Positions 18,254 to 36,295 of a stretch of 64,000 bases of DNA are shown here, in pieces. The notes below the pieces were generated by a model. The model did not search any database and had not been told where the DNA came from. It saw only the letters and a list, made by a program, of their open reading frames with translations. The position numbers and the translations under genes were made by a program. The stretch comes from an uncultured Alphaproteobacteria bacterium (lineage in GTDB: Bacteria; Pseudomonadota; Alphaproteobacteria; Rs-D84), in contig CALXMC010000004.1 of assembly GCA_944389385.1 (NCBI GenBank), positions 8,254 to 72,253 on the forward strand, written 5' to 3'. How positions within the stretch are numbered: position 1 is the stretch's first letter; each line of letters starts with the position of its first letter.

Positions 18254-18298
18254 TGGCTCGGGCAACTGGACTCGAACCAGTGACATACGGATTAACAG
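18254..18298 (-). other. 45-bp fragment identical to the 3' part of tRNA-Asn, starting in the anticodon loop (att site direct repeat)
   Basis: TGGCTCGGGCAACTGGACTCGAACCAGTGACATACGGATTAACAG is identical to 36220-36264. Similarity extends ~8 bp further (GAAAT-CTT). Confidence 0.85.
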
Positions 18299-19168: not shown

Positions 19169-19266
19169 GTGGCTGGAACAAAAAAAGAAGCGATAAAAAA
19201 TAGCTGTTTCTGCTGGATATTATGTTTTTATCGTGCATTGTGTGTTTGTAATAAAGGAGTGCACAC

Positions 19267-20475
19267 ATGGCAGAACAATGGAAATGCTATACAAAGCCGT
19301 TTCGGGACACTTGGATACATCTGTTGCATTCAGATGTTAACCTGCAGGTCAGCGACGGCACCATCCCAGGATTATTCCTGCGATATTCTGCGGCAACACG
19401 CAATATTCGGTTTTTCCTGGGGTGTAAAATAGATAACAAGAAATGCAATATTTTTATAGGTCGCTACAGAGATTATTCTATCAAAGATATTCGTGACATG
19501 GCGTGGAATATGCGGCATCAAATTGCCCAAGGCGAAGACCCACGCAGAAAAAGAATAGAAGAACAACTGAAAGAAAAAGAAACGCTGGGCGAACAGGTAA
19601 AAGTACTGTTCCCACAATATATGGACAAATATTCCAAAATATACAAGAAGCCACGAACCCAGGATTCTAATTGGGGGCAATATAGATTATATTTAGCGCC
19701 TATGTTTGATAAGCTGTACATACGCCAAATAGAAGAAAAGCATGTAATGGACGCCTATGCCAAGTGGGTAAAGAAAACCTCATTCTCAACCGCGAACAAA
19801 GCGCTGTCTCTGTTCTCTAATTTCTGGGATTGGTGCGAAATGTATAAATACGTAGACCGCAATACAAACCCATGCAAGTATGTCCGCAAAGGTTCAAACA
19901 AAGTTTATAAGCCACAAATACTGGACCAAGACGGTTATCGTGCATTATCGCATGCGCTGGATGTTGGGCCCCAGGTATCTAAAATGCACCCACGGTTATT
20001 CAATGCGTTGCGGGTGCTGATGCTGACTGGGGGTCGTGCGTCTGAAATAACCGGGCTAGAGGTAGAAGAACTTGCGCTTATGCACAAGGTAATACACCTG
20101 AAAGACAGCAAGACCGGCGCCCGGGATGTAAAACTGTCTGACGCAGTTATACCATACTTGCAGGCTGCGCTGGATGAAGCAACCGCACTGGGCAGCAAAT
20201 ATGTATTCCCAGGTGTTGGGAACGAGCACAGACCAATAAACAACATCCGCAAGCCATTTGAATGGGCACTGTCATATGCCAAGCTGCCACATATGCGAAT
20301 ACACGACCTGCGACATTCGTTTATCAGTATGGGTGCAAATATCGGTGAAAATATAGCTGCCATGAAAGAAGCAGCCGGCCATTCCCGTATAACCACCACC
20401 GAAGGATATACCCACATCATGGACAGCAGCACCTATCGTGCCATCAATAACGTTGCAAATGCAATATGTGCCTAA
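19267..20475 (+). CDS. int: Tyrosine site-specific integrase
   Basis: C-terminal catalytic region with R (GGRASE), HDLRHSF, HSRITTTEGYTH (H-x-x-R...Y). 402 aa; true start may be downstream. Confidence 0.8.
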   Translation: MAEQWKCYTKPFRDTWIHLLHSDVNLQVSDGTIPGLFLRYSAATRNIRFFLGCKIDNKKCNIFIGRYRDYSIKDIRDMAWNMRHQIAQGEDPRRKRIEEQLKEKETLGEQVKVLFPQYMDKYSKIYKKPRTQDSNWGQYRLYLAPMFDKLYIRQIEEKHVMDAYAKWVKKTSFSTANKALSLFSNFWDWCEMYKYVDRNTNPCKYVRKGSNKVYKPQILDQDGYRALSHALDVGPQVSKMHPRLFNALRVLMLTGGRASEITGLEVEELALMHKVIHLKDSKTGARDVKLSDAVIPYLQAALDEATALGSKYVFPGVGNEHRPINNIRKPFEWALSYAKLPHMRIHDLRHSFISMGANIGENIAAMKEAAGHSRITTTEGYTHIMDSSTYRAINNVANAICA

Positions 20476-20535
20476 ATGGTGCATGTTGCATTTCAGTAAA
20501 ATAAAAATAGGTTCTGTAAAACCTCTTTTGATTGG

Positions 20536-20569
20536 GGGGAACGGCGACCTCGAGACCTTGTTACACACA
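20536..20569 (+). repeat. ~34-bp imperfect direct repeat flanking the Fic gene (copy A)
   Basis: GGGGAACGGCGACCTCGAGACCTTGTTACACACA versus copy B GGGTAACGGCGACCCCGCCACCTTGCTACACAC (~85% identity). Confidence 0.6.
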
Positions 20570-20692
20570 GGTTTGAAAAATTGGTTCGCAGGTTCGCACT
20601 TTGGGTGTTTTAATAGTAATTACAATATGATAAGTGCGAACCTGGGGTGCGAACCTGGTTCGCACCTAAGAACATATTTCCTTATAAATCGA

Positions 20693-21799
20693 TTATCGTT
20701 TTTCTGGCAAACTATATTTGCGGCCTTTGTTTTGACCGGTGGCAACCAAGAAACCTTTGTTAACCAATGCGACAAATAGTTGGCGTACGCGCTGTGGCGA
20801 CTTGCCCGTTATAGAAATTGCATCCGCAGCAGTAACATAACCCAGCGTGCATAACTTTTCAGCCATAGCGATAAAGAACGTCCGTTCTGTTTTGTTCAGG
20901 TCGTCTATATTCAAATCGCTACATTTATCGCTAGTTATATCGCTAGTTTTTATTTCAGGATTAGCGATATTTATAACCATGTCGTCACCTTTCAGCGAAT
21001 TGTTTTCGCCCAGCAACAGATTTCCAAAGAACAAGTTCAGGTATTTATAGGTCCGTTTGATACCGCGCGGTATATTTTCATAGTTGGCACGAACCAAGGC
21101 ATTGCGAAAATATTCTGCATAATCCTTGAATAATTCGTTATCAGCAGCAAAGCCTTTATTGTGCAGATACTTGATTGCAAATACGGCGATTGTGCGCGTA
21201 TTGCCTTCGCGAAATGGATGAATTTGCCACAGGCCAGACACGAATTGCGCGATATGTTCAACTTGCGCACGTGTGTTAAGCGTACTGTAATCAAAACGTT
21301 CTTCGCGGTCAAAGTCGTATTCCAGCGTTGGCATAATGTCCATATGGCTGGCATAGTGCACAGTATCCCCCATCAGCACGTTTTCTGCCTTGATAATATC
21401 CTTGGTACGAAGATTCCCAACCCAGTGTTCAGGCAATGCCGCATTAAACAAATACTTGTGAATAGACAGCAAAGTAGTCGGCGCAAAGGTAAAAGACGAA
21501 TTGCTTAACAGTTCTGCAATACGGTTGGAAACGGTGTCGGCCTCCCAGTATTCAATACCCAGTTCGTCACCCTCTGGGGTGCGGTAATACTGGCGCAGCG
21601 ACTGATGAACTTCGTCATGACTCAGCTTGCCTTCGATATTATCACGCGCCACCTGGTACAGATAACGCGATGGTGTCAACCCATCAACCTGTTGCAGGCC
21701 AATGGCGATATCCCAATTACGTGCCTTTTCTTGTTTAGATGGCTCTTGGGCTGTTTTGTATTCGCTGATAAAATCTGAAAACTTTGCCATATCTTTCAT
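20693..21799 (-). CDS. Fic/Doc-family protein (AMPylator-like) with C-terminal winged-helix domain
   Basis: Fic motif HPFREGNTRT (HPFx[DE]GNxR). 368 aa. C-terminal wHTH-like segment (LVALVNKGFLVATGQNKGRKYSL). Confidence 0.75.
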   Translation of the reverse strand: MKDMAKFSDFISEYKTAQEPSKQEKARNWDIAIGLQQVDGLTPSRYLYQVARDNIEGKLSHDEVHQSLRQYYRTPEGDELGIEYWEADTVSNRIAELLSNSSFTFAPTTLLSIHKYLFNAALPEHWVGNLRTKDIIKAENVLMGDTVHYASHMDIMPTLEYDFDREERFDYSTLNTRAQVEHIAQFVSGLWQIHPFREGNTRTIAVFAIKYLHNKGFAADNELFKDYAEYFRNALVRANYENIPRGIKRTYKYLNLFFGNLLLGENNSLKGDDMVINIANPEIKTSDITSDKCSDLNIDDLNKTERTFFIAMAEKLCTLGYVTAADAISITGKSPQRVRQLFVALVNKGFLVATGQNKGRKYSLPEKR

Positions 21800-21877
21800 G
21801 CCTTACACTATTGATTATATCCAAGAAATACAAAAATTCCAGTTATTTAATGGGTCCTGTGACGGGCGTTTCATATA

Positions 21878-21911
21878 CGGGTAACGGCGACCCCGCCACC
21901 TTGCTACACAC
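21878..21911 (+). repeat. ~34-bp imperfect direct repeat flanking the Fic gene (copy B)
   Basis: See copy A. The two copies bracket 20693..21799. Confidence 0.6.
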
Positions 21912-21962
21912 TGATAAAAAAACAAGACCGCATGCCGCACTGTCTAATTTCATAAATCAGAA

Positions 21963-21996
21963 TTGATTTCATGTTGATTTCAATATTGATTTCATA
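21963..21996 (+). promoter_or_regulatory. Three tandem TTGATTTCA repeats at ~12-bp spacing in the divergent Fic/Nudix intergenic region
   Basis: ATTGATTTCATGTTGATTTCAATATTGATTTCATAGG. Followed by (AGT)5 microsatellite and a purine-rich tract. Confidence 0.4.
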
Positions 21997-22277
21997 GGTA
22001 AGGAAAGTAGTAGTAGTAGTAAAGAAAAGCAAAAGATAATAAAAATAAAAGATAAAGAAAAGGTAGTGAAAGAAGAAATGCACAAAAAATTGTTGAAAAC
22101 TTACGTAAAACTGTTGATATGTTGTTAGTTATGTCTAAATCATAAAATATCGCAAAATTTAACCTTAAATGTATCGTGGTGTATCTCTATGTATAAACGC
22201 TAAAATCCGCAGAAAATAAGGACTTTACAAACCCAAAAAAACAGTGCAAGATGGTGTTGTAAAGGAAAGGATTCAGT

Positions 22278-22664
22278 GTGAAAGTAACAGCTGCGATTTT
22301 TAGAAATGAGGACCGGGTTCTGCTTATGCGACGGGCGGCTGATCAGCCGTTGGCGGGCGAATGGGAATACCCCGGTGGCAAGTTTGAAGATGGCGAAGAC
22401 GGCCCAACATGCCTGCGCCGGGAACTGGCCGAAGAGTTGGGAATCGATGCGCAAATTGGCGACCTGATTACCATCGCAAAACATACAACAGATTCTGGCA
22501 AGGTTATCGAACTGCACACATACGAAATCAAATCCTTCACCGGCGAAATTCAACTGCGCGTCCACGATGATATGCATTGGGTGCCAGTCCAGGACTTGCC
22601 ATTCCACCCACAACTCCCCGCCGACCAAATCGTATCTAAAACATTACAAGCCAAAGGAAAGTAA
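22278..22664 (+). CDS. Nudix hydrolase (MutT-like)
   Basis: Nudix box GGKFEDGEDGPTCLRRELAEELGI (Gx5Ex7REUxEExGU). 128 aa. Stop 1 nt before next start. Confidence 0.8.
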   Translation: MKVTAAIFRNEDRVLLMRRAADQPLAGEWEYPGGKFEDGEDGPTCLRRELAEELGIDAQIGDLITIAKHTTDSGKVIELHTYEIKSFTGEIQLRVHDDMHWVPVQDLPFHPQLPADQIVSKTLQAKGK

Positions 22665-22665
22665 A

Positions 22666-24642
22666 ATGAGCGACGCTTTCTACAAAAACAGTATTCATAA
22701 CTTTTTGCGCCAAAGCGATGATGAAATCTTTGGTATTATCGCCGCAGGTGACAGATACGACACGGTTGCCGCACAAAAAGACGCCTGGATGGAACAAATT
22801 CGCGTGTTGAAATATGCGCTGGCATACGCGCCATCTGGCAGCATCCTGTTTGAATACACACTGCCACGTGTGGGCGGTCGCATAGATAACATCTTGCTGA
22901 TAAACAATACTGTTTTTGTTTTAGAGTTCAAGGTCGGCGCAGAAACATATGCCAGTGATGCAATCCGCCAGGTTCGCACATACGCATTTGATTTGCAAAA
23001 CTATCATGAAGAAAGTCGTCAGTGTAAAATCGTTCCTATCTTGGTGGCAACAGGTGTACCGGATGACTACCGCAAACACGATATGCCAGAAGATGTAATC
23101 CTGACTGACGGTGATGAATTGCGTAATATATTCATTCGCAACACAGATACTTCGTGCACAACAATCAATATGGACAAATGGGCAACTTCCAGATATGTCC
23201 CAACCCCAACGATTATCGAAGCCGCGGAAATTTTATACAGCAATCACTCTGTTGCGGATATTGCGCAAAATACGGCGGCTGAAAACCTGACCAAAACATC
23301 AGACGCAGTTCAGCGTATAATTGAACATTCAAAGCAGAATAAACAAAAATCTATTTGCTTTATCACCGGTGTGCCTGGCGCGGGTAAAACCTTGGCGGGT
23401 CTGAATATCGCAATTGAAAATCAGAAAACAACAGGGCAAAGTTATTCGTGTTTCTTAACGGGTAATCAGCCACTGGTATCCGTTTTACGCGAAGCGTTGG
23501 CCGCAGACGATCATCGGCAAAACGGTACGCAAATCACAGAAGCCCGCAATAAAGTAAAATCCTTTATCCAGATAATCCACCATTTTCGTGACGCGTCATT
23601 GGAAAATGTGGATGTGCCACCAATCGACAATGTTGTTATATTTGATGAGGCGCAACGCGCATGGGTTCAATCAATGCTATCTGGTTTTATGCAAGAGAAG
23701 AAGGTTGCTGTTCTTAATCGACTGACCAACGAACAGCGGGCACATTTCTTGTCTATGAGTGAACCAGAAATGTTAATTGACTATATGAACCGACACCAAG
23801 ATTGGGCCGTAATCGTCTGTCTTGTTGGCGGTGGTCAGGACATTAACACTGGTGAAGCTGGTATCCAGGAATGGTTCGCGTCATTAAAACGTTCTTTCCC
23901 AGATTGGAATGTTTACGTGTCTGGCGACATAACATCCAATGAATACCTGGGCGATCAATCGTTTACAGAACTGACCGATGGATTGAAATGCGAAACGATT
24001 AAAGAACTGCACCTGTCCGTATCATTGCGTGCACACAGAACATCCGATGTTGCGGGTTTTGTGGATTCTTTGCTGGATAACGATGCCGCAGCCGCCGCAG
24101 AAAAATATAAGCACCTGTCCGGAATTTACCCGATTTATATGACCCGCGACTTGGCGCGCGCCAAACAATGGGTGCGCGAACAGACCGCCGGCAAGGCATT
24201 GCGTCATGGTCTGATTGCCAGTTCAAATGGTCGCAGATTGCGTGCAGATGGTATTTGGATAGAAAGTAAGTGCAAGCCGGAAAAGTGGTTCCTGGGTGAA
24301 CGTGATGATATCAAGTCTTCATACTTTATGGAAGAAGCGGCCAGTGAATTTGATATCCAGGGCCTGGAAATAGATTATGCGGTTGTTGGCTGGGATGCAG
24401 ACTATAGATATGTAAACGGTGAATTCGAATGTTTTAAACCAAGTGGTTCGCGCTGGTTAACAATAAATCAAGAATACAAGAAACGTTATCTGAAAAACGC
24501 ATATCGCGTTTTACTGACACGTGCCCGTGAAGGTTTTGTAATATTCGTCCCACGCGGCGACGCGTCCGACACCACCCGTCAACCAGAATTCTACGACGCC
24601 CTATGGCAATACCTAACCGATATTGGGGTGGAGGAGTTATAA
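22666..24642 (+). CDS. DUF2075-family protein: N-terminal nuclease-like region plus P-loop ATPase/helicase-like domain
   Basis: Start set at ATG 22666 (RBS GGAAAG). Walker A FITGVPGAGKTLAG mid-protein. Walker B-like VVIFDEAQRAW. Overall order matches DUF2075 as I recall it. Confidence 0.6.
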   Translation: MSDAFYKNSIHNFLRQSDDEIFGIIAAGDRYDTVAAQKDAWMEQIRVLKYALAYAPSGSILFEYTLPRVGGRIDNILLINNTVFVLEFKVGAETYASDAIRQVRTYAFDLQNYHEESRQCKIVPILVATGVPDDYRKHDMPEDVILTDGDELRNIFIRNTDTSCTTINMDKWATSRYVPTPTIIEAAEILYSNHSVADIAQNTAAENLTKTSDAVQRIIEHSKQNKQKSICFITGVPGAGKTLAGLNIAIENQKTTGQSYSCFLTGNQPLVSVLREALAADDHRQNGTQITEARNKVKSFIQIIHHFRDASLENVDVPPIDNVVIFDEAQRAWVQSMLSGFMQEKKVAVLNRLTNEQRAHFLSMSEPEMLIDYMNRHQDWAVIVCLVGGGQDINTGEAGIQEWFASLKRSFPDWNVYVSGDITSNEYLGDQSFTELTDGLKCETIKELHLSVSLRAHRTSDVAGFVDSLLDNDAAAAAEKYKHLSGIYPIYMTRDLARAKQWVREQTAGKALRHGLIASSNGRRLRADGIWIESKCKPEKWFLGERDDIKSSYFMEEAASEFDIQGLEIDYAVVGWDADYRYVNGEFECFKPSGSRWLTINQEYKKRYLKNAYRVLLTRAREGFVIFVPRGDASDTTRQPEFYDALWQYLTDIGVEEL

Positions 24643-24646
24643 CCAT

Positions 24647-25480
24647 ATGATTAAAGAATATCCATTGCCACATCCGTTAAAGAATGATGACGTAGACACC
24701 TTAATGAAAAAAATAAGGATGATGGTTCGCACCATGGAATCATTTCACCCTCAGGCTACAAAAGACAAGGCTCTTATGGGGCTACATAGTTTGGTGGGGG
24801 CTATTATTTCTCTGTCGGCAGAGGTTTATGATGCTTTGCAAAATAACAGAGTTTTTGTGGCCAGTTCCATTACGTGCCAAATTTTAGAAGCTGAAATACA
24901 ACTGCTATGGTTAAACAAGCATTTTAATACCAGGGGTAAAGATTTTATAGATTTTGGATATGTTGAACAAATAGAAATGTTATGTGTACACCCAGATCGT
25001 AAAGATAGGGTTTTAGAATTACTGAAGCAAAATAATTGCGACAGATTCTTACGTAAAGGCCTTAAGAATCCAAATAGACTAGATCGTAACAGTTACAACA
25101 AAAAGTGGTATGGTGATACGATACAAAACATATCAGAAGATTATTTCAATCCTGTTTTGGAATCGATTCAAGACACACCAGAGTTGGTTGCATATTATGA
25201 AAACAAAGATATAAACTACGAAAATTATCAACTGTTTTGTGGCTACAAACACTTTTCACCATATTTAGTAAGAAGATTTTTCGCAACAAGTCAATCTTTT
25301 CAAGAAGATGAAAGCAAATATGCTAGGGTGGCGGTTTTGCAAACTGTTTTGAATTCATTACTAAATGTCTGTTTCGTTCTTGAACAACATGGCGATCCAA
25401 TATTGCATATCAAGCCACTCGCAACAGAAGGGTTGGCGCCCGCATCCGCCAAACAAAAAATACAGGAAGAACGCAATTAA
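24647..25480 (+). CDS. Hypothetical protein (operon member)
   Basis: 277-aa ORF starting 4 nt after the DUF2075 stop with RBS GGAGGAG. No recognised motif. Confidence 0.45.
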   Translation: MIKEYPLPHPLKNDDVDTLMKKIRMMVRTMESFHPQATKDKALMGLHSLVGAIISLSAEVYDALQNNRVFVASSITCQILEAEIQLLWLNKHFNTRGKDFIDFGYVEQIEMLCVHPDRKDRVLELLKQNNCDRFLRKGLKNPNRLDRNSYNKKWYGDTIQNISEDYFNPVLESIQDTPELVAYYENKDINYENYQLFCGYKHFSPYLVRRFFATSQSFQEDESKYARVAVLQTVLNSLLNVCFVLEQHGDPILHIKPLATEGLAPASAKQKIQEERN

Positions 25481-25548
25481 CATATTGTTCCCTTGACTTT
25501 ATGGTTTGTTTTGGTCTAACTTTCTTACTGAGGAAAGGTTCAAGAACA

Positions 25549-26529
25549 ATGGAATATGAAATTGATATCAGAGAAAATATGATATTGAGAAAGTGGCCAG
25601 TTTTACTGGATATTCTGTTGTATGATCATACGACAAAAAAAAATATTTTCTGGGCTACAGATTTATATGAAAACCATTATGGTAATAGATACTCATTTAG
25701 GTCTCAAATAAAACCGGAACTTATTACTGGTATAAACGATGGCATAATCAAACCTCGTGTAGCGAAGACTAAGAAAGCACAGCAAGATCGCGTTAAGGAT
25801 AAAGCAGAGGTTTTTACGCCCTCCTGGATATGTAACAAACAAAATAATTTGATAGATAATGATTGGTTTGGTTATGAAGGGGTTTTCAACAAAGAAAAAG
25901 ATGACAACACCTGGATCCCCACTAAGAAGCCTGTTGTGTTTCCAGAGGGGAAAAACTGGGTTGATTATGTTCGTGAATTGCGGTTAGAGGTTGCGTGTGG
26001 TGAGGCACCGTATTTAGTAAGTCGATACGATATTACAACTGGAAAAAAGATAAAAATACCTAATAGAATTGGTTTGCTGGATCGGAAACTCCGCATTATA
26101 AATGAAAATGCAGCCAGTGATAGCGAATGGTTTGCGATGGCAAAATGGGCATTCAAAAGCACATATGGTTATGAATGGCAGGGGGATAATTTATTGCTGG
26201 CTCGAGAAAACTTGTTGTTCACGTTTATTGAGTACTATCAGGATAGATTTGACGAAGAACCGGGATTAGAAATTTTAATGGAGATCGCAGAAATTATTTC
26301 TTGGAATATATGGCAAATGGATGGAATTCGTGGTGTTTTACCGTGTTCTTGCTGTAATTCAAAACATATAGACTTATTCGGTGAAAAAACTAGGGGGGGG
26401 TGTCTTGGTTGTAAAACCGGCGATATTCATAGTCATAACGGTATATATTGCAAGATTCGTGATTGGAATAGCAAAACAAAACGTCCAAAAACATTAACTT
26501 TTGTATCATTGTTAAAGGATATAAAATGA
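25549..26529 (+). CDS. Methyltransferase-like protein with degenerate gamma-class motifs X and I, no NPPY, and a C-terminal Cys cluster
   Basis: EVFTPSWICNKQNNLI resembles motif X of N6-adenine MTases and is near-identical in pattern to EVPTPINVCDNIINLI in the next gene. LEVACGEAPYLV resembles motif I (DPACGxGxFL). No NPPY. C-terminal CSCCN...CLGCK...C cluster. Confidence 0.45.
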   Translation: MEYEIDIRENMILRKWPVLLDILLYDHTTKKNIFWATDLYENHYGNRYSFRSQIKPELITGINDGIIKPRVAKTKKAQQDRVKDKAEVFTPSWICNKQNNLIDNDWFGYEGVFNKEKDDNTWIPTKKPVVFPEGKNWVDYVRELRLEVACGEAPYLVSRYDITTGKKIKIPNRIGLLDRKLRIINENAASDSEWFAMAKWAFKSTYGYEWQGDNLLLARENLLFTFIEYYQDRFDEEPGLEILMEIAEIISWNIWQMDGIRGVLPCSCCNSKHIDLFGEKTRGGCLGCKTGDIHSHNGIYCKIRDWNSKTKRPKTLTFVSLLKDIK

Positions 26530-29500
26530 AAGATTTAAATCTTGATGAAGTTATAGTAGGTAGAGTAGAACCACATATATACGCCTTTACAACGAATACC
26601 ATACCGAACTATTTAAAGGTTGGAGATACATATCGTACTGTCAAAAGTAGATTGGAGGAATGGAAAAAATATTTTCCGAACCTAAAAGCAGAGTTTGATG
26701 GAAGTGCAAAAATATCTGATGGAGTTTTTGTTAGAGATTATTCTGTGCATCAATATTTGGAAGGCGGTATACATAGAGATAGGTTAACGCCAGAGATTTT
26801 AAAGCAAATTTCGCCAGCAGCTTATTTTTCTAAAGAATTTTTTAAAAATGCCACTGCACAAGATGTTAGTGATGCGTTGACTGATATTCGGGAATCGTTT
26901 GCTAATAACGATAACAGGTATAGTTTTTATAATTTAGATCGTATGCCTGTAGTTCACCAGTATGCCTCAACAGGATTCTGGAAGCCTCGTCCAAATCAAC
27001 AAGATACGATAGATAAAATTAAGGAGGCTGTTGAGAAAGGTAGAACCAATTTGCTAATGTATGCAGTAATGCGCTTTGGAAAATCTTTTACAGCCCTATG
27101 TTGCGCAAAGGAAATAAACGCTGAAATCGTATTGGTTGTTTCTGCAAAAGCTGATGTTAAGGAAGAATGGCGTAAAAATGTTCAAAGTGCAGATAATTTC
27201 AGAGACGATTATATTTTTGCAGATGCAAAACAATTGCGAGATGAGGAAGGTTTAATCAAAAACACGCTGGATAATAAAAAAAAGGTGGTTTTGTTTTTGA
27301 CTTTGCAAGATTTGCAAGGAACAGATATTAAAGAAAAACACAAAGAAGTTTTTGATAACAAAATAGATCTGTTAATTGTTGACGAAACTCATTACGGGGC
27401 TAGGGCCGAAAAATATGGTGCTGTTTTGCGTCAAACAAAGGATATAAAGCAAGACTATTCAACAGAAGGTTTTGTAGATATAGAAGAGGCTGATAAACAG
27501 ATAAAGACCCTTAAGGCCAAGATAACGCTACACCTATCAGGAACACCGTATCGCATATTGATGGGCAGCGAATTTACCAAAGATGACATAATTGCTTTTT
27601 ATCAGTTTACAGACATTGTAAAGGCGCAGGAGAATTGGGATAAAGAAAACCTATTAAAGGACGAAGCAGAACCAGAATGGGACAACCCTTATTTTGGTTT
27701 TCCGCAAATGATACGATTTGCGTTTCACCCAAGTACAGTCGCTAAAGCAAAGCTAGACGAGTTAAGGAAGAATGGTGTTAGTTATGCATTTTCTGAGTTG
27801 TTTAAACCAAAATCGATCTATCGTGCAGGTGACGAAAGTCATAAAATGTTTGTCCATGAGTCCGAGATTTTAGATTTGTTCACAGTGATAGATGGCAGTA
27901 AGAACGATAAAAATGTTCTTGGTTTTCTTAATCATGACAAAATCCAATCAGGAAATATGTGTCGCCACATAGTTTGTGTGTTGCCATATTGTGCTTCTTG
28001 TGATGCGCTGGAAAAACTTATACAAGACAATGCAGATAAATTTAAAAACTTGCGGGACTACGAAGTAATAAATATCTCAGGTGTTGATGCTGCTAGAACC
28101 TATAGAGATGTTAATGCTGTGAAGAGAAAGATTAAGGAATGCGAAGCCGATAACAAGAAAACTTTAACTTTGACAGTGAATCGTATGCTTACGGGTAGCA
28201 CGGTTGAAGAATGGGATACAATGATTTTTTTGAAGGATACCGCATCCCCACAAGATTATGACCAGGCTGTTTTTCGTCTGCAAAATCAATATGTTAGAAA
28301 ATATGTTGATCCTAAAACAGGGCAGGAAATCAAATATAACATGAAACCGCAAACATTATTGGTCGATTTCGATCCAAATCGTATGTTTATGATGCAGGAA
28401 TCTAAATCACAGATATATAATGTAAATACGGAAGTAAACGGAAATTCTAAATTACAAGACAGAATCCAAGAAGAATTGCGTATTTCGCCGATTATAACCA
28501 TAAATCAAGACAAAATAAGTCAGGTTGATGCGTCGGATATTATTGATGCAGTTAGCGAATATTCGAGTAAACGCGGTGTCTGGGACGAATCAAAAAGCAT
28601 TCCTGTAGATTTTGAATTATTAAAAGATCAACAGATATTTGATGTAATAAATAGTCAGGGGGAAATTGGATCTAACCAGGGATTGAAGGTCGAAGGAAAT
28701 GTCGGTGATGATGTTGATATTGATGTGCCACCGGTAGAACTTCCGGAACCTCCTGTTGAGCCAAAAGATCCGGCGCCAGTGGTTGCTGTTGAAAAAGACG
28801 ATATGAAAAGTTTGGAAAATAAATTCAAAACTTATTATTCCAGAATATTATTTTTCGCCTTTTTAACAAACAATAAAGTTACATCATTGGATGATGTATT
28901 AAATTGCATCACAAAAGAAGATAATGTGCGTATAGCAAAGAATTTAGGTTTAAAATATCAGATATTGGTTAGCATAAGAAATAAAATCAACAGTTATATT
29001 TTGCAACAGCTGGATTACAAAATATATGATATCAGTAAATTGGCACACGATACAGAGGTTGAGCCTATAAATCGTGCGGAAACGGCATTGATAAAGTTTG
29101 GGCGTTTTTCAGAATCCGAAGTCCCAACGCCAATCAATGTTTGTGACAATATAATAAATTTAATACCAGATGACGCATTTCTGTCACTCAAGAAACAGAA
29201 TAATGCAATGTTGGATATAGCAAGCAAGGCCGGTGAATTTGCGATCGCTATTTGTAAAAGATGTGAAAAGATAGGCATCGATATAGAATCAATAAAAGAT
29301 TCCGTGCTGGCTATACCCACATCATCGGTTGCGTATGAATTTACGCGCAAAGTTTATGAATTTCTTGGTTTGAATATCAATGCGATAGCAGCAGAATTTA
29401 ATAGTTATGATTTGTTGGATGTTAAGATGTTGGACAGACGTGGCAGACCAACAAAGAACATAGATTATGCACGTGTTGCTGCTATATTAAAACAAACTAA

Positions 29501-30593
29501 GCCACTGGATAAAATTAAATTAAATGATAATATTGAAGAAGCAGGAGAAAATAAAATGCAGTTTCAAGCAGTTGTTGGAAATCCGCCATACCAAGAAGCG
29601 CGCCAGAATACTAGTGATAATCCTATATATCATTTATTTATGAATGTAGCATTTCTGCTGAGTAATAAAGCATCATTTATTACGCCTGCTAGGTTTTTAT
29701 TTAATGCCGGTAAAACCCCAAAAGAATGGAACAGGAAGATGCTTGACGATGAGCATGTTAAGGTTTCATCTTATGAAAGAGAATCTAAAAAGTATTTCCC
29801 TCATACCAGTATAAATGGCGGAATTGCAATAACTTATAGAGATACTTCAAAAAAATATGGTGCAATTAAATTTTTTCGACCATATAAAGAAATGGGGAGT
29901 GTTGCAGATAAAATATTGAATTACAAAAACTTTGAAAGCATCAAAGATATGGTTTATCTCCAAAATAAATTTAATTTAGAGGCGCTATATAAAGATTATT
30001 CTAAAGCTAAAACAAAAATTAGCTCTGCTGGTAGCGAAAAGCGAATAGTGTCATCTGCTTTTGAGAACCTTACTGAAGTTTTTTCAGATGTGATGCACAC
30101 AAAAAGTAGTGTTCCTATTTGTGGATTATTCAAGAGAAGAAGGATAGTCAAATACATTGAGGAAAAATATTTAGAACGTGGATCAAATATAGATCATTAT
30201 AAAGTTTTACTTTCTTCCGCTGATGGGGCGAGTGGTACCATAGGCAACCCTGTACCAGCAAGGGTGATTGGAGAGCCAGTTGTGTTGGATGCTGGTGTTG
30301 GATACACTCAGACATTTATTTCAATTGGAGCTTTTAAACGTAAAAAAGAAGCGGATAATTTACAGAAATATTTAAAAACTAGATTTGTTCGTTTCATGGT
30401 GGGGACTCTAAAGGCAACAAATGGGCTTAAGATAGAAGTTTGGTCAAATGTGCCAAAACAGGATTTTTCTGACGCGTCTGACATAGATTGGTCAAAATCC
30501 ATTGCTGAAATAGATAAGCAGTTATACAAGAAGTATGGGCTGGATAAGAAAGAAATTGATTTCATTGAATCTATGATCAAACCAATGGAGTAA
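26526..30593 (+). CDS. Fused GIY-YIG nuclease / SF2 helicase-ATPase / gamma-class N6-adenine methyltransferase / C-terminal putative TRD (Type ISP/IIG-like RM enzyme)
   Basis: N-terminus HIYAF-(9)-YLKVGDTYRTVKSRLEEW fits GIY-(9-11)-YIG...R...E. Helicase motifs I RFGKSFTAL, II LLIVDETHYGA, III LSGTPYRI, VI QAVFRLQN. MTase motifs X EVPTPINVCDNIINLI, I LDIASKAGEFA, IV VVGNPPYQ. ~450 aa after NPPY for target recognition. ATGA overlap with upstream gene. Confidence 0.7.
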   Translation: MKDLNLDEVIVGRVEPHIYAFTTNTIPNYLKVGDTYRTVKSRLEEWKKYFPNLKAEFDGSAKISDGVFVRDYSVHQYLEGGIHRDRLTPEILKQISPAAYFSKEFFKNATAQDVSDALTDIRESFANNDNRYSFYNLDRMPVVHQYASTGFWKPRPNQQDTIDKIKEAVEKGRTNLLMYAVMRFGKSFTALCCAKEINAEIVLVVSAKADVKEEWRKNVQSADNFRDDYIFADAKQLRDEEGLIKNTLDNKKKVVLFLTLQDLQGTDIKEKHKEVFDNKIDLLIVDETHYGARAEKYGAVLRQTKDIKQDYSTEGFVDIEEADKQIKTLKAKITLHLSGTPYRILMGSEFTKDDIIAFYQFTDIVKAQENWDKENLLKDEAEPEWDNPYFGFPQMIRFAFHPSTVAKAKLDELRKNGVSYAFSELFKPKSIYRAGDESHKMFVHESEILDLFTVIDGSKNDKNVLGFLNHDKIQSGNMCRHIVCVLPYCASCDALEKLIQDNADKFKNLRDYEVINISGVDAARTYRDVNAVKRKIKECEADNKKTLTLTVNRMLTGSTVEEWDTMIFLKDTASPQDYDQAVFRLQNQYVRKYVDPKTGQEIKYNMKPQTLLVDFDPNRMFMMQESKSQIYNVNTEVNGNSKLQDRIQEELRISPIITINQDKISQVDASDIIDAVSEYSSKRGVWDESKSIPVDFELLKDQQIFDVINSQGEIGSNQGLKVEGNVGDDVDIDVPPVELPEPPVEPKDPAPVVAVEKDDMKSLENKFKTYYSRILFFAFLTNNKVTSLDDVLNCITKEDNVRIAKNLGLKYQILVSIRNKINSYILQQLDYKIYDISKLAHDTEVEPINRAETALIKFGRFSESEVPTPINVCDNIINLIPDDAFLSLKKQNNAMLDIASKAGEFAIAICKRCEKIGIDIESIKDSVLAIPTSSVAYEFTRKVYEFLGLNINAIAAEFNSYDLLDVKMLDRRGRPTKNIDYARVAAILKQTKPLDKIKLNDNIEEAGENKMQFQAVVGNPPYQEARQNTSDNPIYHLFMNVAFLLSNKASFITPARFLFNAGKTPKEWNRKMLDDEHVKVSSYERESKKYFPHTSINGGIAITYRDTSKKYGAIKFFRPYKEMGSVADKILNYKNFESIKDMVYLQNKFNLEALYKDYSKAKTKISSAGSEKRIVSSAFENLTEVFSDVMHTKSSVPICGLFKRRRIVKYIEEKYLERGSNIDHYKVLLSSADGASGTIGNPVPARVIGEPVVLDAGVGYTQTFISIGAFKRKKEADNLQKYLKTRFVRFMVGTLKATNGLKIEVWSNVPKQDFSDASDIDWSKSIAEIDKQLYKKYGLDKKEIDFIESMIKPME

Positions 30594-30597
30594 CGGT

Positions 30598-30942
30598 ATG
30601 AAAATGTTGCACATTTTTATATTACTTGTATTTCCACTTGCGCTGGTTGGATGTTCTGAACCTGCACCGGAATGCTGGTCGCCTTCTGTAAAAAGCTTAC
30701 TAAAAGATATAGCGAAAGAAAGCTATAACAAGGAAATAGTAGGGTTTGAAGAAGTTGTGGAGATGGAAGTGTTTAATAATGTTACTCCACAAAGACGTGC
30801 TTGCTCAGCCAAACTGGTAACCAAATACAATGAAAAAGAAGCTACATACCAGTATTTTGAGGTAGATTATGTCGTTAGAACCATCCGTGGCGAAAATAAT
30901 ATGTACTACACTTCAGTAACCGATATGCATCGAAAATTATAA
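30598..30942 (+). CDS. Small lipoprotein, hypothetical
   Basis: Signal peptide with lipobox LALVGC. 114 aa. Confidence 0.5.
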   Translation: MKMLHIFILLVFPLALVGCSEPAPECWSPSVKSLLKDIAKESYNKEIVGFEEVVEMEVFNNVTPQRRACSAKLVTKYNEKEATYQYFEVDYVVRTIRGENNMYYTSVTDMHRKL

Positions 30943-30962
30943 GATATAGGATAAGATGAAAA

Positions 30963-31676
30963 ATGGATACATGTAATATTTTGGAATATATTGGCATGGG
31001 AGGCGATTATGTTATTAAAAATATAGTCAAACTTCTTACTAGCTGGCCTTTTATTGTACTGGTTGTGTTTTTTGCGCTCAGAAAATACTTTGTCGCAATT
31101 TTGAAAAAAATAAAAGAAGATTTGCGAGTAAAAGACAACAAATTTTCACTTGGTGACTCAAATCAGCCAGATATTCAAAATAGCACACAAGACAAATTAT
31201 TTGATATTCCTGCAACTACTTCTGATAAGAAGTTAAAAAAGCGTAAGGCAGAATACGATCTTCCAGAATTGCCTGATACGGGCTTGAAGGCTTATACATT
31301 AGAAATAGAAAATAAGTTAAAGAAAGATTTAGCGGAATCGCCGTATAAAAAAATAGATATAATGGTTAGGGATTCGACAAATTATAGGATAGCAACGGAG
31401 TTTGAACGTATATATAGAATTATCTTTGGAAGCCAAATACGATTGTTACGTCATTTGGAAGCAGCAAAAACACTAACAAAAAATGAAGTAGCTAAGTTTT
31501 TCAAACAAGAAAAACGTAAAATGCCGGATAGCAATATTGAATTAGAACCTTGGACCAAATTTGTGCAATCTCAGGGACTGATGGAGTACAAAGATGGGGA
31601 ATATACAATTACAAATAAAGGGTTAGCTTTTATAGCCTATTTAGCCCTTTTCAATTATGAGGATAGGCTGTGGTAA
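30963..31676 (+). CDS. Hypothetical membrane-anchored protein
   Basis: N-terminal TM (WPFIVLVVFFAL). K/E-rich soluble domain. 237 aa. Confidence 0.45.
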   Translation: MDTCNILEYIGMGGDYVIKNIVKLLTSWPFIVLVVFFALRKYFVAILKKIKEDLRVKDNKFSLGDSNQPDIQNSTQDKLFDIPATTSDKKLKKRKAEYDLPELPDTGLKAYTLEIENKLKKDLAESPYKKIDIMVRDSTNYRIATEFERIYRIIFGSQIRLLRHLEAAKTLTKNEVAKFFKQEKRKMPDSNIELEPWTKFVQSQGLMEYKDGEYTITNKGLAFIAYLALFNYEDRLW

Positions 31677-31728
31677 AAATAAAAAGAAAAAATAATGAAT
31701 AAATAGCCAAGTATCATTTTAAATAATG

Positions 31729-32247
31729 TTATATATTAAAAGTAGTAAAAAAATTTTGTAGTTCTTTATCTGAAACAGTGTGTGACAATATATCACTTAC
31801 ATTTTTCAAATTTGTTTTTTCTTTTGGATTTAATCTTTGGTGTCTTAAATTTTCAAAACATTTGCGTATAAGATGCTGTTTGGTGTCCGGTAAATAGGCG
31901 ATGCATGCTAAATGATTATTTTTTCTTTTGTTCATTAAATCAGATTCATTTTCAGTGCAGATTTTTCTGATGTCAAAATGAGAACATCCGGATAAATATT
32001 GTGTAGGTCTGGATGTTAATGAATCTTTTATCAAACATAACCATTCTTTTTCTGTTACAGAAAACGTTAAGCTATGATTTGTATAGTCTTTTGATGTAGA
32101 AACAAAAAAATACAGTACTTCCCGAATAAGAGGCATCCGGTTTATAAATAATTTATATTTACGTTTGCAAACATTTGTGGTTTCTTCTACAGATTGTTCA
32201 TCAACGTAACACCAAAACGGTTGAAAATATTCCATTTTAAGCAGCAT
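31729..32247 (-). CDS. Putative toxin partnered with a Panacea-domain antitoxin (no recognisable family)
   Basis: 172-aa ORF. 11-nt overlap with upstream Panacea gene in operon arrangement. No known toxin motif seen. Confidence 0.4.
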   Translation of the reverse strand: MLLKMEYFQPFWCYVDEQSVEETTNVCKRKYKLFINRMPLIREVLYFFVSTSKDYTNHSLTFSVTEKEWLCLIKDSLTSRPTQYLSGCSHFDIRKICTENESDLMNKRKNNHLACIAYLPDTKQHLIRKCFENLRHQRLNPKEKTNLKNVSDILSHTVSDKELQNFFTTFNI

Positions 32248-32725
32248 ACATATTTAAAACTTCACCCATATGCTCTGTGCCGCCAAGAGTCGCACCAATT
32301 AAAACCATAGGTTTTGTGTTATAGGCTATTTCTGTTAAAGTTTTAGCTCCGTATCCCTGCACATGTTCCAGCATAGTAGAAACAATGTTCAGTTCATCTG
32401 GTGACAAAGAATCTGTTTCTACTGATGTAGGATCGGTAAGATTGTAAACTACGTGCTCGTCGCTTCCAAAGAAACAGGATTCTGCAGATATCGTTCCTTC
32501 TTCGCGCATGTTTTCAAGGTTTTTGTAAATAGTACTATCAAAAGGACCAAAATTCCAACGGATATATTTAAATTCGGATATAGGTTTCCCAATATTGCGA
32601 ATTGCGGCCAAGTCAATCAAGTATGATATTTTTAGCAAACTAGTAACTCCGCGTGGGCCATCACGCAAAATGAGCGCCAAAAGCTGTTTCGTTTTCTGAC
32701 ACATAAAATTTCTCTTTGAGTTCAA
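32237..32725 (-). CDS. Panacea-domain (DUF4065, GepA/SocA-like) putative antitoxin
   Basis: KQLLALILRDGPRGVTSLLKISYLIDLAA...ISEFKYIRWNFGPFDSTIYKNLENM fits the DUF4065 pattern (LQKLLYLAD...W.YGPV...Y). Confidence 0.5.
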   Translation of the reverse strand: MNSKRNFMCQKTKQLLALILRDGPRGVTSLLKISYLIDLAAIRNIGKPISEFKYIRWNFGPFDSTIYKNLENMREEGTISAESCFFGSDEHVVYNLTDPTSVETDSLSPDELNIVSTMLEHVQGYGAKTLTEIAYNTKPMVLIGATLGGTEHMGEVLNMYAA

Positions 32726-33216
32726 TGCAATTATAACACATTATGTTAAAATTATAAAAGCATAAAATTAGGTTTTTAGAAAAATAGGACTAAAAAATAA
32801 AAAAAGCAACAAAAATATCTCGTTGCTCATGCTGACAATTATACCATAATTTGCTTAAAAAGTCAATAATAACTAGTTGTTGGTCACGAAAATATGGACT
32901 TGTAATAACTTGACATCTGTGTCAACTTGTGCTGGATGCGGCGGGGCAACCATGTCTGCCGGCATGTTAGGTTGCCGTTGTTTGTTCTGCGGATAGCTCC
33001 AACTCGTGTAATGATCGGCATGCTGCGAAATAAAGCATAATAAAATCCGTCTTATTACTGGGCTCAATTTCTCGAAAATGTTTGTACTTCATAGACAATC
33101 CTTTTAAGGTTGTCGTATTTGGCATAATCTTTCGTCACTTGCCCAGTCATTTGTTGTAACTAAAGGATATTGCTTGTTTTTCAATTTTTTGGTAATTTGG
33201 AACAAAAGGGGACAAA

Positions 33217-34017
33217 ATGGCAGATTATAAGGAATATCTGGATAAAATAAGAAATTCGCAGTTGTTATATTTTGATTCATTTCCATTGGATATGACGTCT
33301 TGTGAATATAATGTGCATTTGTTGTTGAATAAAATGGCGGAAGCAAGAAAGTCATACCTTTTGCTAATGGATAATGAACGATTTACGGATGCTATGTTGG
33401 TGGCAGGACATTTGCTAGAGAATGCAGCGGTGATCAATTATCTTTCTGCTAGCTTGCAAGAAGCTAATACAAAACAAATAAGCAAATATCTGGCACGAGA
33501 AACGGTACAAACTCTATGTGATTTATTCAAATTTGTAGGCGATGATAATGTGGATGCGGAAACTCAAGAAAATATAGATTTTATAATGGATGATTTTAAG
33601 AATAGATGCGACATAGTTGTATCGAAAAAAGCGGAACAAAGTCACGAAGAATTGGTCCAGACTATATTGATGGCTATGACAAATTCGGAAAAATTAAGAA
33701 TTATAAAAAATAATTACGAATTTCCGGTGGTTGAAGATTATTTGAGGCCGTTTAGGAAAGATTTATCAAATTTTTATGGTTTTTCCGGTATTGATAAAAA
33801 GCTTGTGTTGTTTTATTCGTCATATTGCAAAATAAAACACTGCGGGGCGGCTATGTATGTGCCAGTTCTATGCAAAGATATGGTTGTTATGAATAAAAAT
33901 CAGTACAGAGGCCTTAGCCCTATAGTTGTCTGGATGTGTTTGGAATACACAGAAAAGAATATAAAAAATATATTGTCAAAAATAAAACCAGAATTAGGAT
34001 TAACAGCCAAAAACTAG
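33217..34017 (+). CDS. Hypothetical protein (266 aa), convergent with reverse transcriptase
   Basis: Clean ORF. No recognised motif. Confidence 0.4.
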   Translation: MADYKEYLDKIRNSQLLYFDSFPLDMTSCEYNVHLLLNKMAEARKSYLLLMDNERFTDAMLVAGHLLENAAVINYLSASLQEANTKQISKYLARETVQTLCDLFKFVGDDNVDAETQENIDFIMDDFKNRCDIVVSKKAEQSHEELVQTILMAMTNSEKLRIIKNNYEFPVVEDYLRPFRKDLSNFYGFSGIDKKLVLFYSSYCKIKHCGAAMYVPVLCKDMVVMNKNQYRGLSPIVVWMCLEYTEKNIKNILSKIKPELGLTAKN

Positions 34018-34034
34018 ATGTTTTTTATAACGTT

Positions 34035-35576
34035 TTAATTTATTGGTTTATTGATAAGTGTTGTTATAAATTTGTTAAGTTCCACATCTTCTGAGTCTAT
34101 AATCTTTTTAACGCGTTCAAAATGTTTTCGCATTTGTTTTTTCAATGTGATATCGCCCATATCGTCAAAGGCTCTATTGACATAGGCCCAGAAAGTTCTT
34201 TTGCCTAGGTGTGTGTAATTCCTATATAAACTTCTCCTGTATAGTTTGGTTTTGATTTGTTTGGGGGCTTGGCCAGCTTCGACCAATCGTTTAATTTTGT
34301 TTTGTGTTGCTAAGCGCATGGATCTAATACCACGTTTGGATTTCCGTAAATATCTTGCCATACTAGAACCACGAATTTTTATGTCTTTGCCATCAAACGT
34401 GAATCCTAAATATTGTAAAGGGTCTTCGATTATTCTGTCAGAAGTAAAATCATAACATTTGCTTTTAGATTTTTTATTATCTTCGATTTGATGTATTGAT
34501 AAATATTTTCCTTGTTCTTTGATGGTTGTCATAATATGTCGGCATATATCTTCTTTTGAATCTTTATCGCATATAATCAAAATATCATCAGAATAACGTC
34601 TGTATACGGCACCATGGTTATTACAAAATTCATTCATGGATTTATCAAATGGCAGCATATAAATATTCGCTAATAACGCCGAAAGGGGAGAACCTTGCGG
34701 AATACCATATGGTGCATCTGTACCTTGAACACCAGGGTTAACATCAAATGTATGATTGTTGATTTTTTCTTTATTACAGATTTTTTGGTGTTGTTTATAC
34801 CATTGTCTAAATTTATGGAAATCGGACATATTGTTAAATAATTTTTGCGGTAATTTATATCCCCTTCGCAACGGGCAGTTTAAACAGGTTTTTGCAGTTG
34901 GAATACAATGCATACATTGCAAATACATTTTTATGATGTCAATATCGATGAAACTGTATTTAGTCAGTGTTTTATAAATATTGAAATGATCTGGTGGTAG
35001 GGTGTCGCAAGCGTCATCTCTACTAAGGAGCGCAGCCCATTGTTTTTTTAGGTTTTTATGGTCAATATAGTCATAAAAACTTTTTATATCGAATGCGAGA
35101 GCTAAGCAGTTGTTTTTTCTGCTTTTTATTATATCAAATACTTCTCGTGCAAAAGTAATATTATTTGCGACTTTTTGCATGTGTTTGGACTTACGGTATG
35201 CTAATACCACATCACCGAGCCCCAATTTTGAGAGCTTTTTTTCATATAAATCATACAATATAGTTGCATAATATGAAAAAATCATTGAATCAAAATGGGC
35301 GGCATATCTGATTGGACGTTTTTTTACAATAGATTGTTGTTGGTCTCTTGGCGTGGTTTTATCTATTTTAGATACGCGCCGTTCTTCAATGTCATACCCA
35401 ATAAAAGGCAGAAAGGGATGTTGGGCTATTTTATTGGCATTGGTTATATACTCGATAATGTTCTTAGCTGCGCTAGATATTGTGCCGTTTGGTAATCTGT
35501 ACGCGTTGATTGGAGCATCAATATGTTTATATTTTTTTCTATTATTATAAAAAAAAGATTCCCAATCAAATTCCAT
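34035..35576 (-). CDS. Stand-alone reverse transcriptase (defence-associated/Abi-like or retron-like; unclassified)
   Basis: RT motifs: motif 1 KKRPIRYAAHFDSMI, motif 2 LALAFDIKSFYDYIDH, motif 4 GIPQGSPLSALLANIYM, motif 5 YRRYSDDILI (YxDD), motif 6/thumb LQYLGFTF. ~90-aa insertion with CxxC...CxxC between motifs 2 and 4. No maturase or endonuclease domain. Confidence 0.75.
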   Translation of the reverse strand: MEFDWESFFYNNRKKYKHIDAPINAYRLPNGTISSAAKNIIEYITNANKIAQHPFLPFIGYDIEERRVSKIDKTTPRDQQQSIVKKRPIRYAAHFDSMIFSYYATILYDLYEKKLSKLGLGDVVLAYRKSKHMQKVANNITFAREVFDIIKSRKNNCLALAFDIKSFYDYIDHKNLKKQWAALLSRDDACDTLPPDHFNIYKTLTKYSFIDIDIIKMYLQCMHCIPTAKTCLNCPLRRGYKLPQKLFNNMSDFHKFRQWYKQHQKICNKEKINNHTFDVNPGVQGTDAPYGIPQGSPLSALLANIYMLPFDKSMNEFCNNHGAVYRRYSDDILIICDKDSKEDICRHIMTTIKEQGKYLSIHQIEDNKKSKSKCYDFTSDRIIEDPLQYLGFTFDGKDIKIRGSSMARYLRKSKRGIRSMRLATQNKIKRLVEAGQAPKQIKTKLYRRSLYRNYTHLGKRTFWAYVNRAFDDMGDITLKKQMRKHFERVKKIIDSEDVELNKFITTLINKPIN

Positions 35577-36219
35577 TGTTATAACCCAACAGCAAAATAC
35601 CCGGGAGACGCCAGGTTTGCGCTAACCATTTGAGACGTCTCTCGTAAACCTTGATTCTACTAAGCTGTGCTCAGTTTGGCTGGTCATCCTTGCTGTTCAC
35701 GCAAAAGTACACGCATAAATTATCAAAGGTTCTATATTTGTCGTAATGAACGTTATTATGAACCAAGGGAGGTCTTGATGATATTCGCACAAATCTTGTT
35801 TAAATGCTTCAATATTCAAGTTTGCCAAGATTCACTGGTCATAGTATTCTTTGCGTTGCAATGGATACTTGACTTCGTTTATTCGATCCCCCTGAACCTA
35901 AAGAACAGGGCAAATTAAATATAATTTTCTTTGGCAGGATTTCAAGTGGTTGAAATGATTTTTTTACGGTATTTGGTTTAGTTTTTTGTAACATAAATAT
36001 AAAACTTGCATTATGTTCAAAATATGTAGACAATCTTACTGATTGAAAAAGCATAAGTTATTCATAAGACGACGGATAGGTTACGGATCCTGTGTAGCTA
36101 TTGTGTAGCCAGAGGGGTGTTTTATGGCGTATTTTGGTGTATCGTAGTATGCGTAAATACAGAAGTGTTAATTTAAGAAAAATGCCGCAAACCTGCGGGG
36201 TTTACGGCGGAAATTCTTG

Positions 36220-36295
36220 GCTCGGGCAACTGGACTCGAACCAGTGACATACGGATTAACAGTCCGTTGTTCTACCGACTGAACTATGCCCGAAC
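36220..36295 (-). tRNA. tRNA-Asn (anticodon GTT), CCA encoded
   Basis: 76 nt: TCGGGCA TA GTTC AGTCGGTA GAAC A ACGGA CTGTTAA TCCGT ATGTC ACTGG TTCGAGT CCAGT TGCCCGA G CCA. Cloverleaf folds with GTT anticodon. Confidence 0.85.

Follow-up and report, generated by a model that had tools for sequence, protein, structure and literature searches.

A predicted two-gene restriction–modification locus with a GIY-YIG-like head and a small methylase-like partner

A two-gene locus and the closest described systems

Type ISP restriction–modification (RM) enzymes such as LlaGI and LlaBIII carry a nuclease, a superfamily 2 (SF2) ATPase, a gamma-class N6-adenine methylase and a C-terminal recognition domain on one chain, and their nuclease is of the Mrr/PD-(D/E)xK kind (PMC3874165). 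Here we describe a pair of adjacent genes in a 64,000-nucleotide stretch of DNA from an uncultured alphaproteobacterium (contig CALXMC010000004.1, positions 8,254 to 72,253; hereafter the window), in which the large gene encodes a protein with the same series of modules behind a T5orf172/GIY-YIG-like head, and the small gene encodes a methylase-like partner. LlaGI and LlaBIII work as single polypeptides, whereas the large gene of the window has a conserved second gene alongside. An earlier note on this DNA, made from its sequence alone, had ascribed the Type ISP layout to the large protein. That description holds for the domain order; it does not extend to the Mrr nuclease, to the self-sufficiency of a single polypeptide or to sequence homology. 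A further likeness is that in both cases the defence is carried on mobile elements.

The locus can also be compared with three other kinds of system. YeeA(DnmA)-YeeB-YeeC resembles it, when compared by domain types only, in combining a gamma-methylase that has a recognition domain, an SF2 helicase and a T5orf172/GIY-YIG domain. There, however, these are three separate proteins, whereas the large protein of the window is fused and is joined by an extra small methylase-like subunit. Clusters of YeeA (MmeI-like), YeeB and YeeC have been predicted to be helicase-assisted RM systems (PMC2731913, Morgan et al.; PMC9973331). Type IIG and IIL enzymes (Eco57I, MmeI, DrdV, BpuSI) combine on one chain, as the large protein does, a nuclease, an Eco57I-family gamma-methylase and a recognition domain. 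Their nuclease is PD-ExK, they lack an ATPase and they cleave at a fixed distance, whereas the large protein has an SF2 motor of ∼550 residues and a GIY-YIG-like head. With Type I systems (HsdR/HsdM/HsdS) the locus has in common a constant methylase-fold subunit, a swappable recognition module and a nuclease-motor module. It differs from them in that the window pair is without a separate S subunit, the nuclease is not PD-(D/E)xK, methylase and recognition are fused to the motor, and the small M-like partner lacks a catalytic NPPY. To our knowledge, PD-(D/E)xK nucleases serve all of the restriction enzymes studied so far that translocate with ATP (Types I, ISP and III), and a GIY-YIG head on a translocating motor would demonstrate that one nuclease module can be exchanged for another. 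As GIY-YIG enzymes usually nick a single strand at a time, the cleavage chemistry and strand order could differ as well.

The layout had been thought undescribed, which is not the case. The large protein matches the PADLOC model REase_MTase_IIG (PDLC03626) end to end (residues 6-1354 versus model positions 12-1359 of 1359; 1281 bits, E=0), and NCBI already carries names for both genes. The family is present in 526 of 185,579 species representatives, with 4683 family matches among the candidates scored. A 2012 paper on Type ISP enzymes (PMC3553950) mentions in passing RM relatives in which GIY-YIG nucleases accompany helicase domains, and the same three domain types have been described as a three-gene YeeA/B/C set (PMC2731913). 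The window locus is thus an intact, typical member of a catalogued, widespread and biochemically uncharacterised family, and it adds nothing beyond that membership. The family is common (gut Clostridia, Bacteroidota and Campylobacter, with distant relatives on Enterococcus plasmids), and its filing under Type IIG in annotation resources probably misdescribes how it works. The conserved ATPase casts doubt on the Type IIG label as a description of mechanism. As a variation on translocating RM enzymes the family is of interest, and its universal NPPY-less partner is the piece least understood.

We consider it probable that the pair is a two-gene ATP-dependent RM system, carried on a mobile defence island and cutting DNA in a Type ISP-like manner. 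The features on which this reading is based are as follows.

25549..26529, forward strand: small partner gene, 326 amino acids (aa) from the ATG at 25549
26526..30593, forward strand: large gene, ATG start, 1355 aa, translates without stops
26559..26903, forward strand: N-terminal T5orf172/GIY-YIG-like putative nuclease domain (∼aa 12-126)
26973..28625, forward strand: SF2 helicase-like ATPase motor (∼aa 150-700) with Walker A RFGKSFT, DExH box DETH, motif III SGTP and motif VI-like QAVFRLQ
28626..28805, forward strand: hypervariable Pro/Glu/Asp-rich linker (aa 701-760) between the motor and methylase modules
28806..29825, forward strand: gamma-class N6-adenine methylase (aa 761-1100) with a helical N-terminal part
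29826..30275, forward strand: hypervariable target-recognition domain (∼aa 1101-1250)
30276..30590, forward strand: C-terminal region (aa 1251-1355), conserved and co-varying with the recognition domain

Modules of the large protein

As read from its sequence, the large gene is a nuclease–motor–methylase–recognition fusion with a GIY-YIG-like head. Its coordinates, start and length are as first reported, the reading frame is open throughout, and each of the motifs previously quoted is found in the translation. These are HIYAF (17-21), YLKVGDT (29-35) and YRTVKSRLEEW (36-46) in the head; RFGKSFT, which holds the GKS (183-189), DETH (286-289), SGTP (338-341) and QAVFRLQ (580-586) in the motor; and EVPTPINVCDNIINLI (865-880), DIASKAGEF (897-905) and NPPY (1019-1022) in the methylase. 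The gap between HIYAF and YLKVGDT is 7 residues rather than 9. Pfam families, with signals well above chance level, fall in the order T5orf172 (17-62, E=8e-4), ResIII (153-342, E=6e-14) and Eco57I (948-1084, E=1e-17); together with the profile of variability along the protein, they bear out the proposed succession of nuclease-like head, SF2 ATPase, gamma-class N6-adenine methylase and recognition domain. To assess conservation, we used a family alignment of 28 sequences, with relatives at 51-76% identity. In this alignment, the GIY, YIG, Arg and Glu residues of the head, helicase motifs I, II, III and VI, and the GNPPY of the methylase are invariant or nearly so. A scan of the large protein against NCBIfam gave no family, and a search of the E. 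coli genome with the two-gene DNA gave no match. Nor did a search of Protein Data Bank (PDB) sequences with the full large protein, in which the solved HsdR, Res and LlaBIII (4xqk) proteins were included. An end-to-end alignment to HsdR or Res, one outcome that would have changed the picture, was likewise absent, as Pfam ResIII covers only the RecA1-like part of the motor.

The candidate catalytic residues of the head are Y19, Y29, R37 or R42, H75, E104 and D120. Y19, G33, R37, R42 and E104 are invariant in the family, and Y29 is nearly so. Tyr19 and Tyr29 are separated by 10, which is the canonical spacing between the GIY and YIG tyrosines. Against a Pfam cut-off of 20, T5orf172 (which we take to belong to the GIY-YIG clan of Pfam) scored 20.3 bits with the full protein (E=8e-4) and 23.8 bits with the isolated domain (E=7e-5). 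When 25 N-terminal domains of the family were scanned singly, 11 matched T5orf172, with a best E value of 1.9e-8, and no Mrr or PD-(D/E)xK family was matched at the N-terminus. An AlphaFold model of residues 1-150, based on a 25-sequence alignment, has a mean pLDDT (predicted local distance difference test score) of 89. Residues 17-22 and 29-35 are modelled as strands and 39-47 as a helix, and E104 is directly followed by a further strand and then a helix. A Foldseek search of this model versus the PDB gave nothing significant, with GIY-YIG entries appearing only at E values above 1. The N-terminal profile found only chance matches among PDB sequences, and a PHROGs scan of the 25 domains gave no informative family. 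The GIY-YIG reading of the N-terminus put forward in the earlier note is therefore well supported by sequence, through the T5orf172 match and the conserved Tyr, Arg and Glu residues, and only modestly by structure. In the case of YeeC, GIY-YIG motifs have been read in the protein (PMC2731913), and T5orf172 and GIY-YIG have been grouped together (PMC9973331).

We also asked in which proteins this head occurs. Its profile retrieved 307 clusters among 1.84 billion representative proteins. The best 150 of these 307 are nearly all proteins of 1300-1450 residues with the domain at the N-terminus, or shorter, fragment-like sequences. These data indicate that this head subfamily is essentially confined to the architecture of the large protein.

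In the motor, motifs I, II, III and VI do not vary across the family, and mean pairwise identity is 0.62-0.68. The family profile of the motor matched no helicase among PDB sequences, which points to a divergent SF2 lineage that is not close to the motors of LlaBIII, HsdR or Res. A difference from Type ISP is that neither the full protein nor the motor profile nor the C-terminal profile gave a PDB sequence match to LlaBIII (4xqk). Given this divergence, one might suppose that the enzyme depends on ATP without translocating over long range, using the motor as a helicase-like switch, for Type III-like sliding or for CglI-like local remodelling, and cutting near its site or after one-dimensional diffusion. 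Such a scheme would fit with a motor that has no detectable likeness to the solved motors of Type I or Type ISP and whose one Pfam match is ResIII (the Type III Res family), and with the databases' filing of the family under Type IIG. There is also a precedent in CglI, an RM helicase-like ATPase reported not to need translocation (PMC5737866). We nevertheless regard this explanation as unlikely. The flexible linker and the N-terminal nuclease-motor order mirror those of Type ISP enzymes and HsdR (PMC3874165), and a relative from Enterococcus gives a weak SNF2-related match, which lies below the Pfam curated cut-off. The sequence itself distinguishes neither mode from the other.

LlaBIII has a folded coupler between its motor and its methylase, whereas the large protein has a disordered Pro/Glu-rich linker at this position. 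Mean pairwise identity falls to 0.30 in the linker, compared to 0.62-0.68 in the motor. The linker is probably flexible, and it is likely to be the joint at which motor and methylase modules recombine.

In the methylase module, TP (868-869) represents motif X, LDIASKAGEF a degenerate motif I and NPPY (1019-1022) motif IV, with G1018 to Y1022 invariant in the family alignment. The C-terminal piece alone also matches Pfam N6_Mtase (E=5e-5). Aligned to DrdV (7lo5), the family profile of the methylase gave a weak match (E 0.14) that spans the TP, the pair LDIASKAGEF/ILDPATGTGTF and the GNPPY. This alignment, which adds to the likeness with Type IIG/IIL enzymes, covers motifs X, I and IV and so fixes the motif order as X-I-IV, that of the gamma class.

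The region that follows is the most variable part of the large protein, with a mean pairwise identity of 0.32 and a minimum of 0.06. Two related loci, L017 and L037, have partners that are 99% identical and motors that are 95% identical, while their recognition domains are only 10% identical. The window system and its close relative L001 show the same pattern (partner 85%, motor 87%, recognition domain 16%). Because residues 1101-1250 are hypervariable even among relatives with ∼95% identical motors, we infer that they form an exchangeable target-recognition domain. The occurrence of near-identical systems with a swapped methylase-recognition module indicates frequent recombination near the linker or within the methylase region. 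Of the ∼450 aa first proposed as a recognition domain, then, a hypervariable block of ∼150 aa (∼1101-1250) qualifies; the rest consists of the methylase core, which extends to ∼1100, and the conserved residues 1251-1355. The latter may be an assembly or dimerisation surface. Neither the recognition domain nor the linker nor the RecA2 half of the motor matches a Pfam family.

The small methylase-like partner

The large protein had been considered a single-polypeptide enzyme. This view does not survive inspection of the DNA upstream, where a small gene ends in a TGA that overlaps the ATG of the large gene as ATGA. The overlap suggests, on sequence grounds, that the two genes are translationally coupled. 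An open reading frame (ORF) list starts the partner at 25501; homologues and the ribosome-binding sequence GAGGAAAGG favour 25549, and the longer ORF is probably not used. To see how general the arrangement is, we fetched 85 related loci from metagenomes and from one genome per species. Of the 80 loci with more than ∼1 kb of upstream DNA, 79 have a partner homologue upstream of the large gene, L077 being the exception. A large-protein relative on an Enterococcus plasmid (1456 aa, 32% identical) also has a partner, of 248 aa and annotated ‘N-6 DNA methylase’. This protein matches Pfam N6_Mtase only at profile positions 23-120 of 311 and, again, has no NPPY. With a partial-methylase partner in the one distant relative examined, the arrangement is not confined to the close family.

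PADLOC names the partner MTase_II (PDLC03390, E=4.5e-112), and the NCBI name for its homologues is ‘restriction endonuclease subunit M’. Pfam gave nothing for the partner, and its family profile gave nothing useful among PDB sequences. In the protein, AEVFTP forms motif X, LEVACGEAPYL resembles motif I, and YGYEWQGDNLLLARENLL, also written YGYEWQGD..ARENLL, resembles motifs II/III. It contains no (D/N/S)PP(Y/F/W); where NPPY would be expected, there is an invariant SWN(I/L/V)WQMDG. The structural model shows a gamma-methylase-like fold with only about five Rossmann-type strands, followed by a Cys-rich, low-confidence insert at ∼261-300. Its top structural matches are LlaBIII (4xqk), which is the best, and HsdM, so that likenesses to Type ISP and to Type I both reappear here.

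Across 68 loci, partner identity correlates with identity of the GIY-YIG and motor modules (r 0.79-0.82). The correlation with the recognition domain is much lower (r 0.25) and disappears when the motor is controlled for (partial r -0.09). This lack of correlation, and the fact that 99%-identical partners serve 10%-identical recognition domains, argue that the partner has no specificity matched to the recognition domain. It follows that host protection would come either from the NPPY methylase of the large protein or from a complex in which the partner borrows the recognition domain.

Could the partner nonetheless be the true protective methyltransferase, with the large-protein methylase serving mainly for recognition or for one strand, in the manner of an Eco57I-like fusion with a separate methylase? 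Both database labels, methylase and M subunit, would say so; the gamma-methylase-like fold and plausible motifs I and II for binding S-adenosylmethionine (AdoMet) are consistent with it, and motif I of the large protein is degenerate. However, the partner has SWNxWQMDG in place of (D/N/S)PP(Y/F/W), only some five Rossmann-type strands in its model and no recognition domain, and near-identical copies of it accompany widely different recognition domains, as noted above. Furthermore, in the Enterococcus counterpart the N6_Mtase match is limited to the N-terminal third of the profile, and NPPY is invariant in the large protein. We find this explanation improbable.

Another way to account for the partner is that the family represents a distinct heteromeric class of ATP-dependent restriction enzyme. 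Here, a GIY-YIG nuclease and a divergent SF2 motor would act with an obligate NPPY-less, specificity-independent methylase-fold subunit, which, by pairing with the catalytic methylase or by sensing AdoMet, would license either methylation or cleavage. Analogies are provided by catalytic methylases that have a non-catalytic methylase-like partner and by the way tasks are divided in the Type III Mod dimer. If true, this would be a mechanism and a subunit plan not seen in Types I, ISP, IIG or III. We advance this idea only tentatively, as a possibility of lesser probability. In any event, the combination of a constant NPPY-less partner with a freely exchanged methylase-recognition module offers a tractable system for studying how recognition, methylation and the motor are coupled.

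Two ideas about how the partner and the large protein are related were examined and set aside. Descent by recent duplication of the large-protein methylase was rejected, as profile-profile comparison aligned the motif X stretch only, with a probability of 2.8%. We also looked for natural fusions of partner and large protein. L050 consists of two same-frame ORFs with a stop between them, and a 1754-aa protein from the search of representative proteins has no similarity to the partner. An apparent 1632-aa fusion product, which came from ORF extension, could not be traced to a locus and was dropped.

In six loci, other genes are inserted between the partner and the large gene (L010, 989-2029; L024, 3899-4972; L034, 3638-4981; L053, 3049-4889; L061, 4163-4639; L082, 3438-4976). 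Named by eye, the inserts of two loci are AlbA_2/HATPase-like, L053 has two Fic genes, and the others are RhuM-like, DUF1016-like and DUF3990-like. Genes of the RhuM, DUF1016 and Fic kinds have been reported between the core genes of Type I RM systems (PMC9881135), and the presence of such kinds inside some of these operons is one more point of resemblance to Type I. In three further loci, an 86-aa gene with an HTH_3/HTH_26 domain directly precedes the partner (L003, 4263-4523; L004, 4810-5070; L005, 2110-2370), and its product could be a controller (C) protein like those of RM operons. In the window, the ORF directly upstream of the partner (24623-25480) has only a weak DUF5677 match and no helix-turn-helix domain.

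Proposed mechanism and the surrounding island

The Type ISP-like reading that we favour can be put as a series of inferred steps. The variable domain (∼1101-1250) would recognise DNA, at an asymmetric site. The Eco57I-type gamma-methylase, with its NPPY, would mark host sites with N6-methyladenine, probably on one strand. Unmodified sites would license the SF2 motor, which would use ATP to move along or remodel DNA. The GIY-YIG/T5orf172-like head, tied to the methylase-recognition module through the flexible Pro/Glu-rich linker, would then cut the DNA. The cut would most likely fall at a distance from the site and follow a collision of two enzymes, as with Type ISP (PMC3553950, PMC3874165). 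The partner, itself without sequence specificity, would be a constant methylase-fold subunit. It is probably bound to the large protein, either to support the methylase module structurally or to bind or sense AdoMet.

Several points weigh against this reading. The literature searched holds no biochemical study of any GIY-YIG–helicase–methylase fusion of this family. No sequence similarity of the motor to a solved translocase could be detected, LlaBIII (present in the PDB as 4xqk) included, and translocation is therefore argued from analogy alone. Motif I of the large-protein methylase is degenerate, LDIASKAGEF being without G-x-G. The linkage of partner to motor may just reflect adjacent coding regions, with recombination in the linker. 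T5orf172 domains are largely uncharacterised and are described as predicted DNA-binding domains (PMC9973331). Finally, DnmA-YeeB-YeeC of B. subtilis, the only tested system with the same three domain types, gave no phage protection (PMC9973331).

The last two of these points also bear on a further explanation, namely that DNA is not cleaved at all. The head would in that case serve to bind DNA, and the pair would be a methylase of the orphan or regulatory sort, a relic, or a non-cutting block of the kind seen in BREX (bacteriophage exclusion). DnmA-YeeB-YeeC, which conferred no defence, was judged a relic (PMC9973331), and the fold match of the head to GIY-YIG is weak. By contrast, the GIY, YIG, Arg and Glu residues of the head are invariant or nearly so in a family that extends to 526 species, the ATPase motifs I, II, III and VI are invariant, and recognition domains are rapidly exchanged. 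Such rapid exchange is expected of RM systems under selection from invading DNA. The location of the pair in a defence island is a further argument against a non-cleaving role, which we judge very unlikely.

The surroundings of the pair in the window are as follows.

18253..36262, no strand: integrative island of ∼18 kb with a 46-bp perfect direct repeat at both ends
18253-18298 and 36217-36262: copies of the 46-bp direct repeat, the second inside tRNA-Asn(GTT)
19267-20475, forward strand: integrase
20693-21799, reverse strand: Fic protein (PADLOC PDC-S72)
22567-24642, forward strand: Schlafen-group-3 helicase (PADLOC PDC-S41, E=2.6e-250)
24623-25480, forward strand: ORF overlapping the Schlafen helicase gene, with a weak DUF5677 match below the Pfam cut-off
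30598-30942, forward strand: 114-aa ORF with a lipoprotein-type signal, MKMLHIFILLVFPLALVGC, starting 5 nt past the stop of the large gene
31729-32725, reverse strand: SocA/Panacea antitoxin-like gene with an overlapping 172-aa ORF (Panacea toxin-antitoxin pair)
34035-35576, reverse strand: DRT2 reverse transcriptase
36218-36293, reverse strand: tRNA-Asn(GTT)

At ∼26-36 kb, the GC content of the island drops to 0.33-0.36. This island context fits a defence role for the RM pair. The 114-aa ORF that follows the large gene is conserved only in the closest relative, L001, and hence is not part of the system. A promoter and terminator scan of 25300-31900 was uninformative, with fewer promoter-like sites than in shuffled sequence.

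Members of the family occur in Bacillota, Bacteroidota, Proteobacteria, Campylobacter, Mycoplasmopsis, Bifidobacterium, Spirochaetota and others, a spread over many phyla that is consistent with horizontal transfer. Matches were found in 89 PLSDB plasmid records, 39 of them from Enterococcus. The 32%-identical relative with the 248-aa partner (L086) is on Enterococcus faecalis plasmid pL8 (NZ_CP072508, 3217-8326), a resistance plasmid, where it adjoins erm(A) and ant(9)-Ia.

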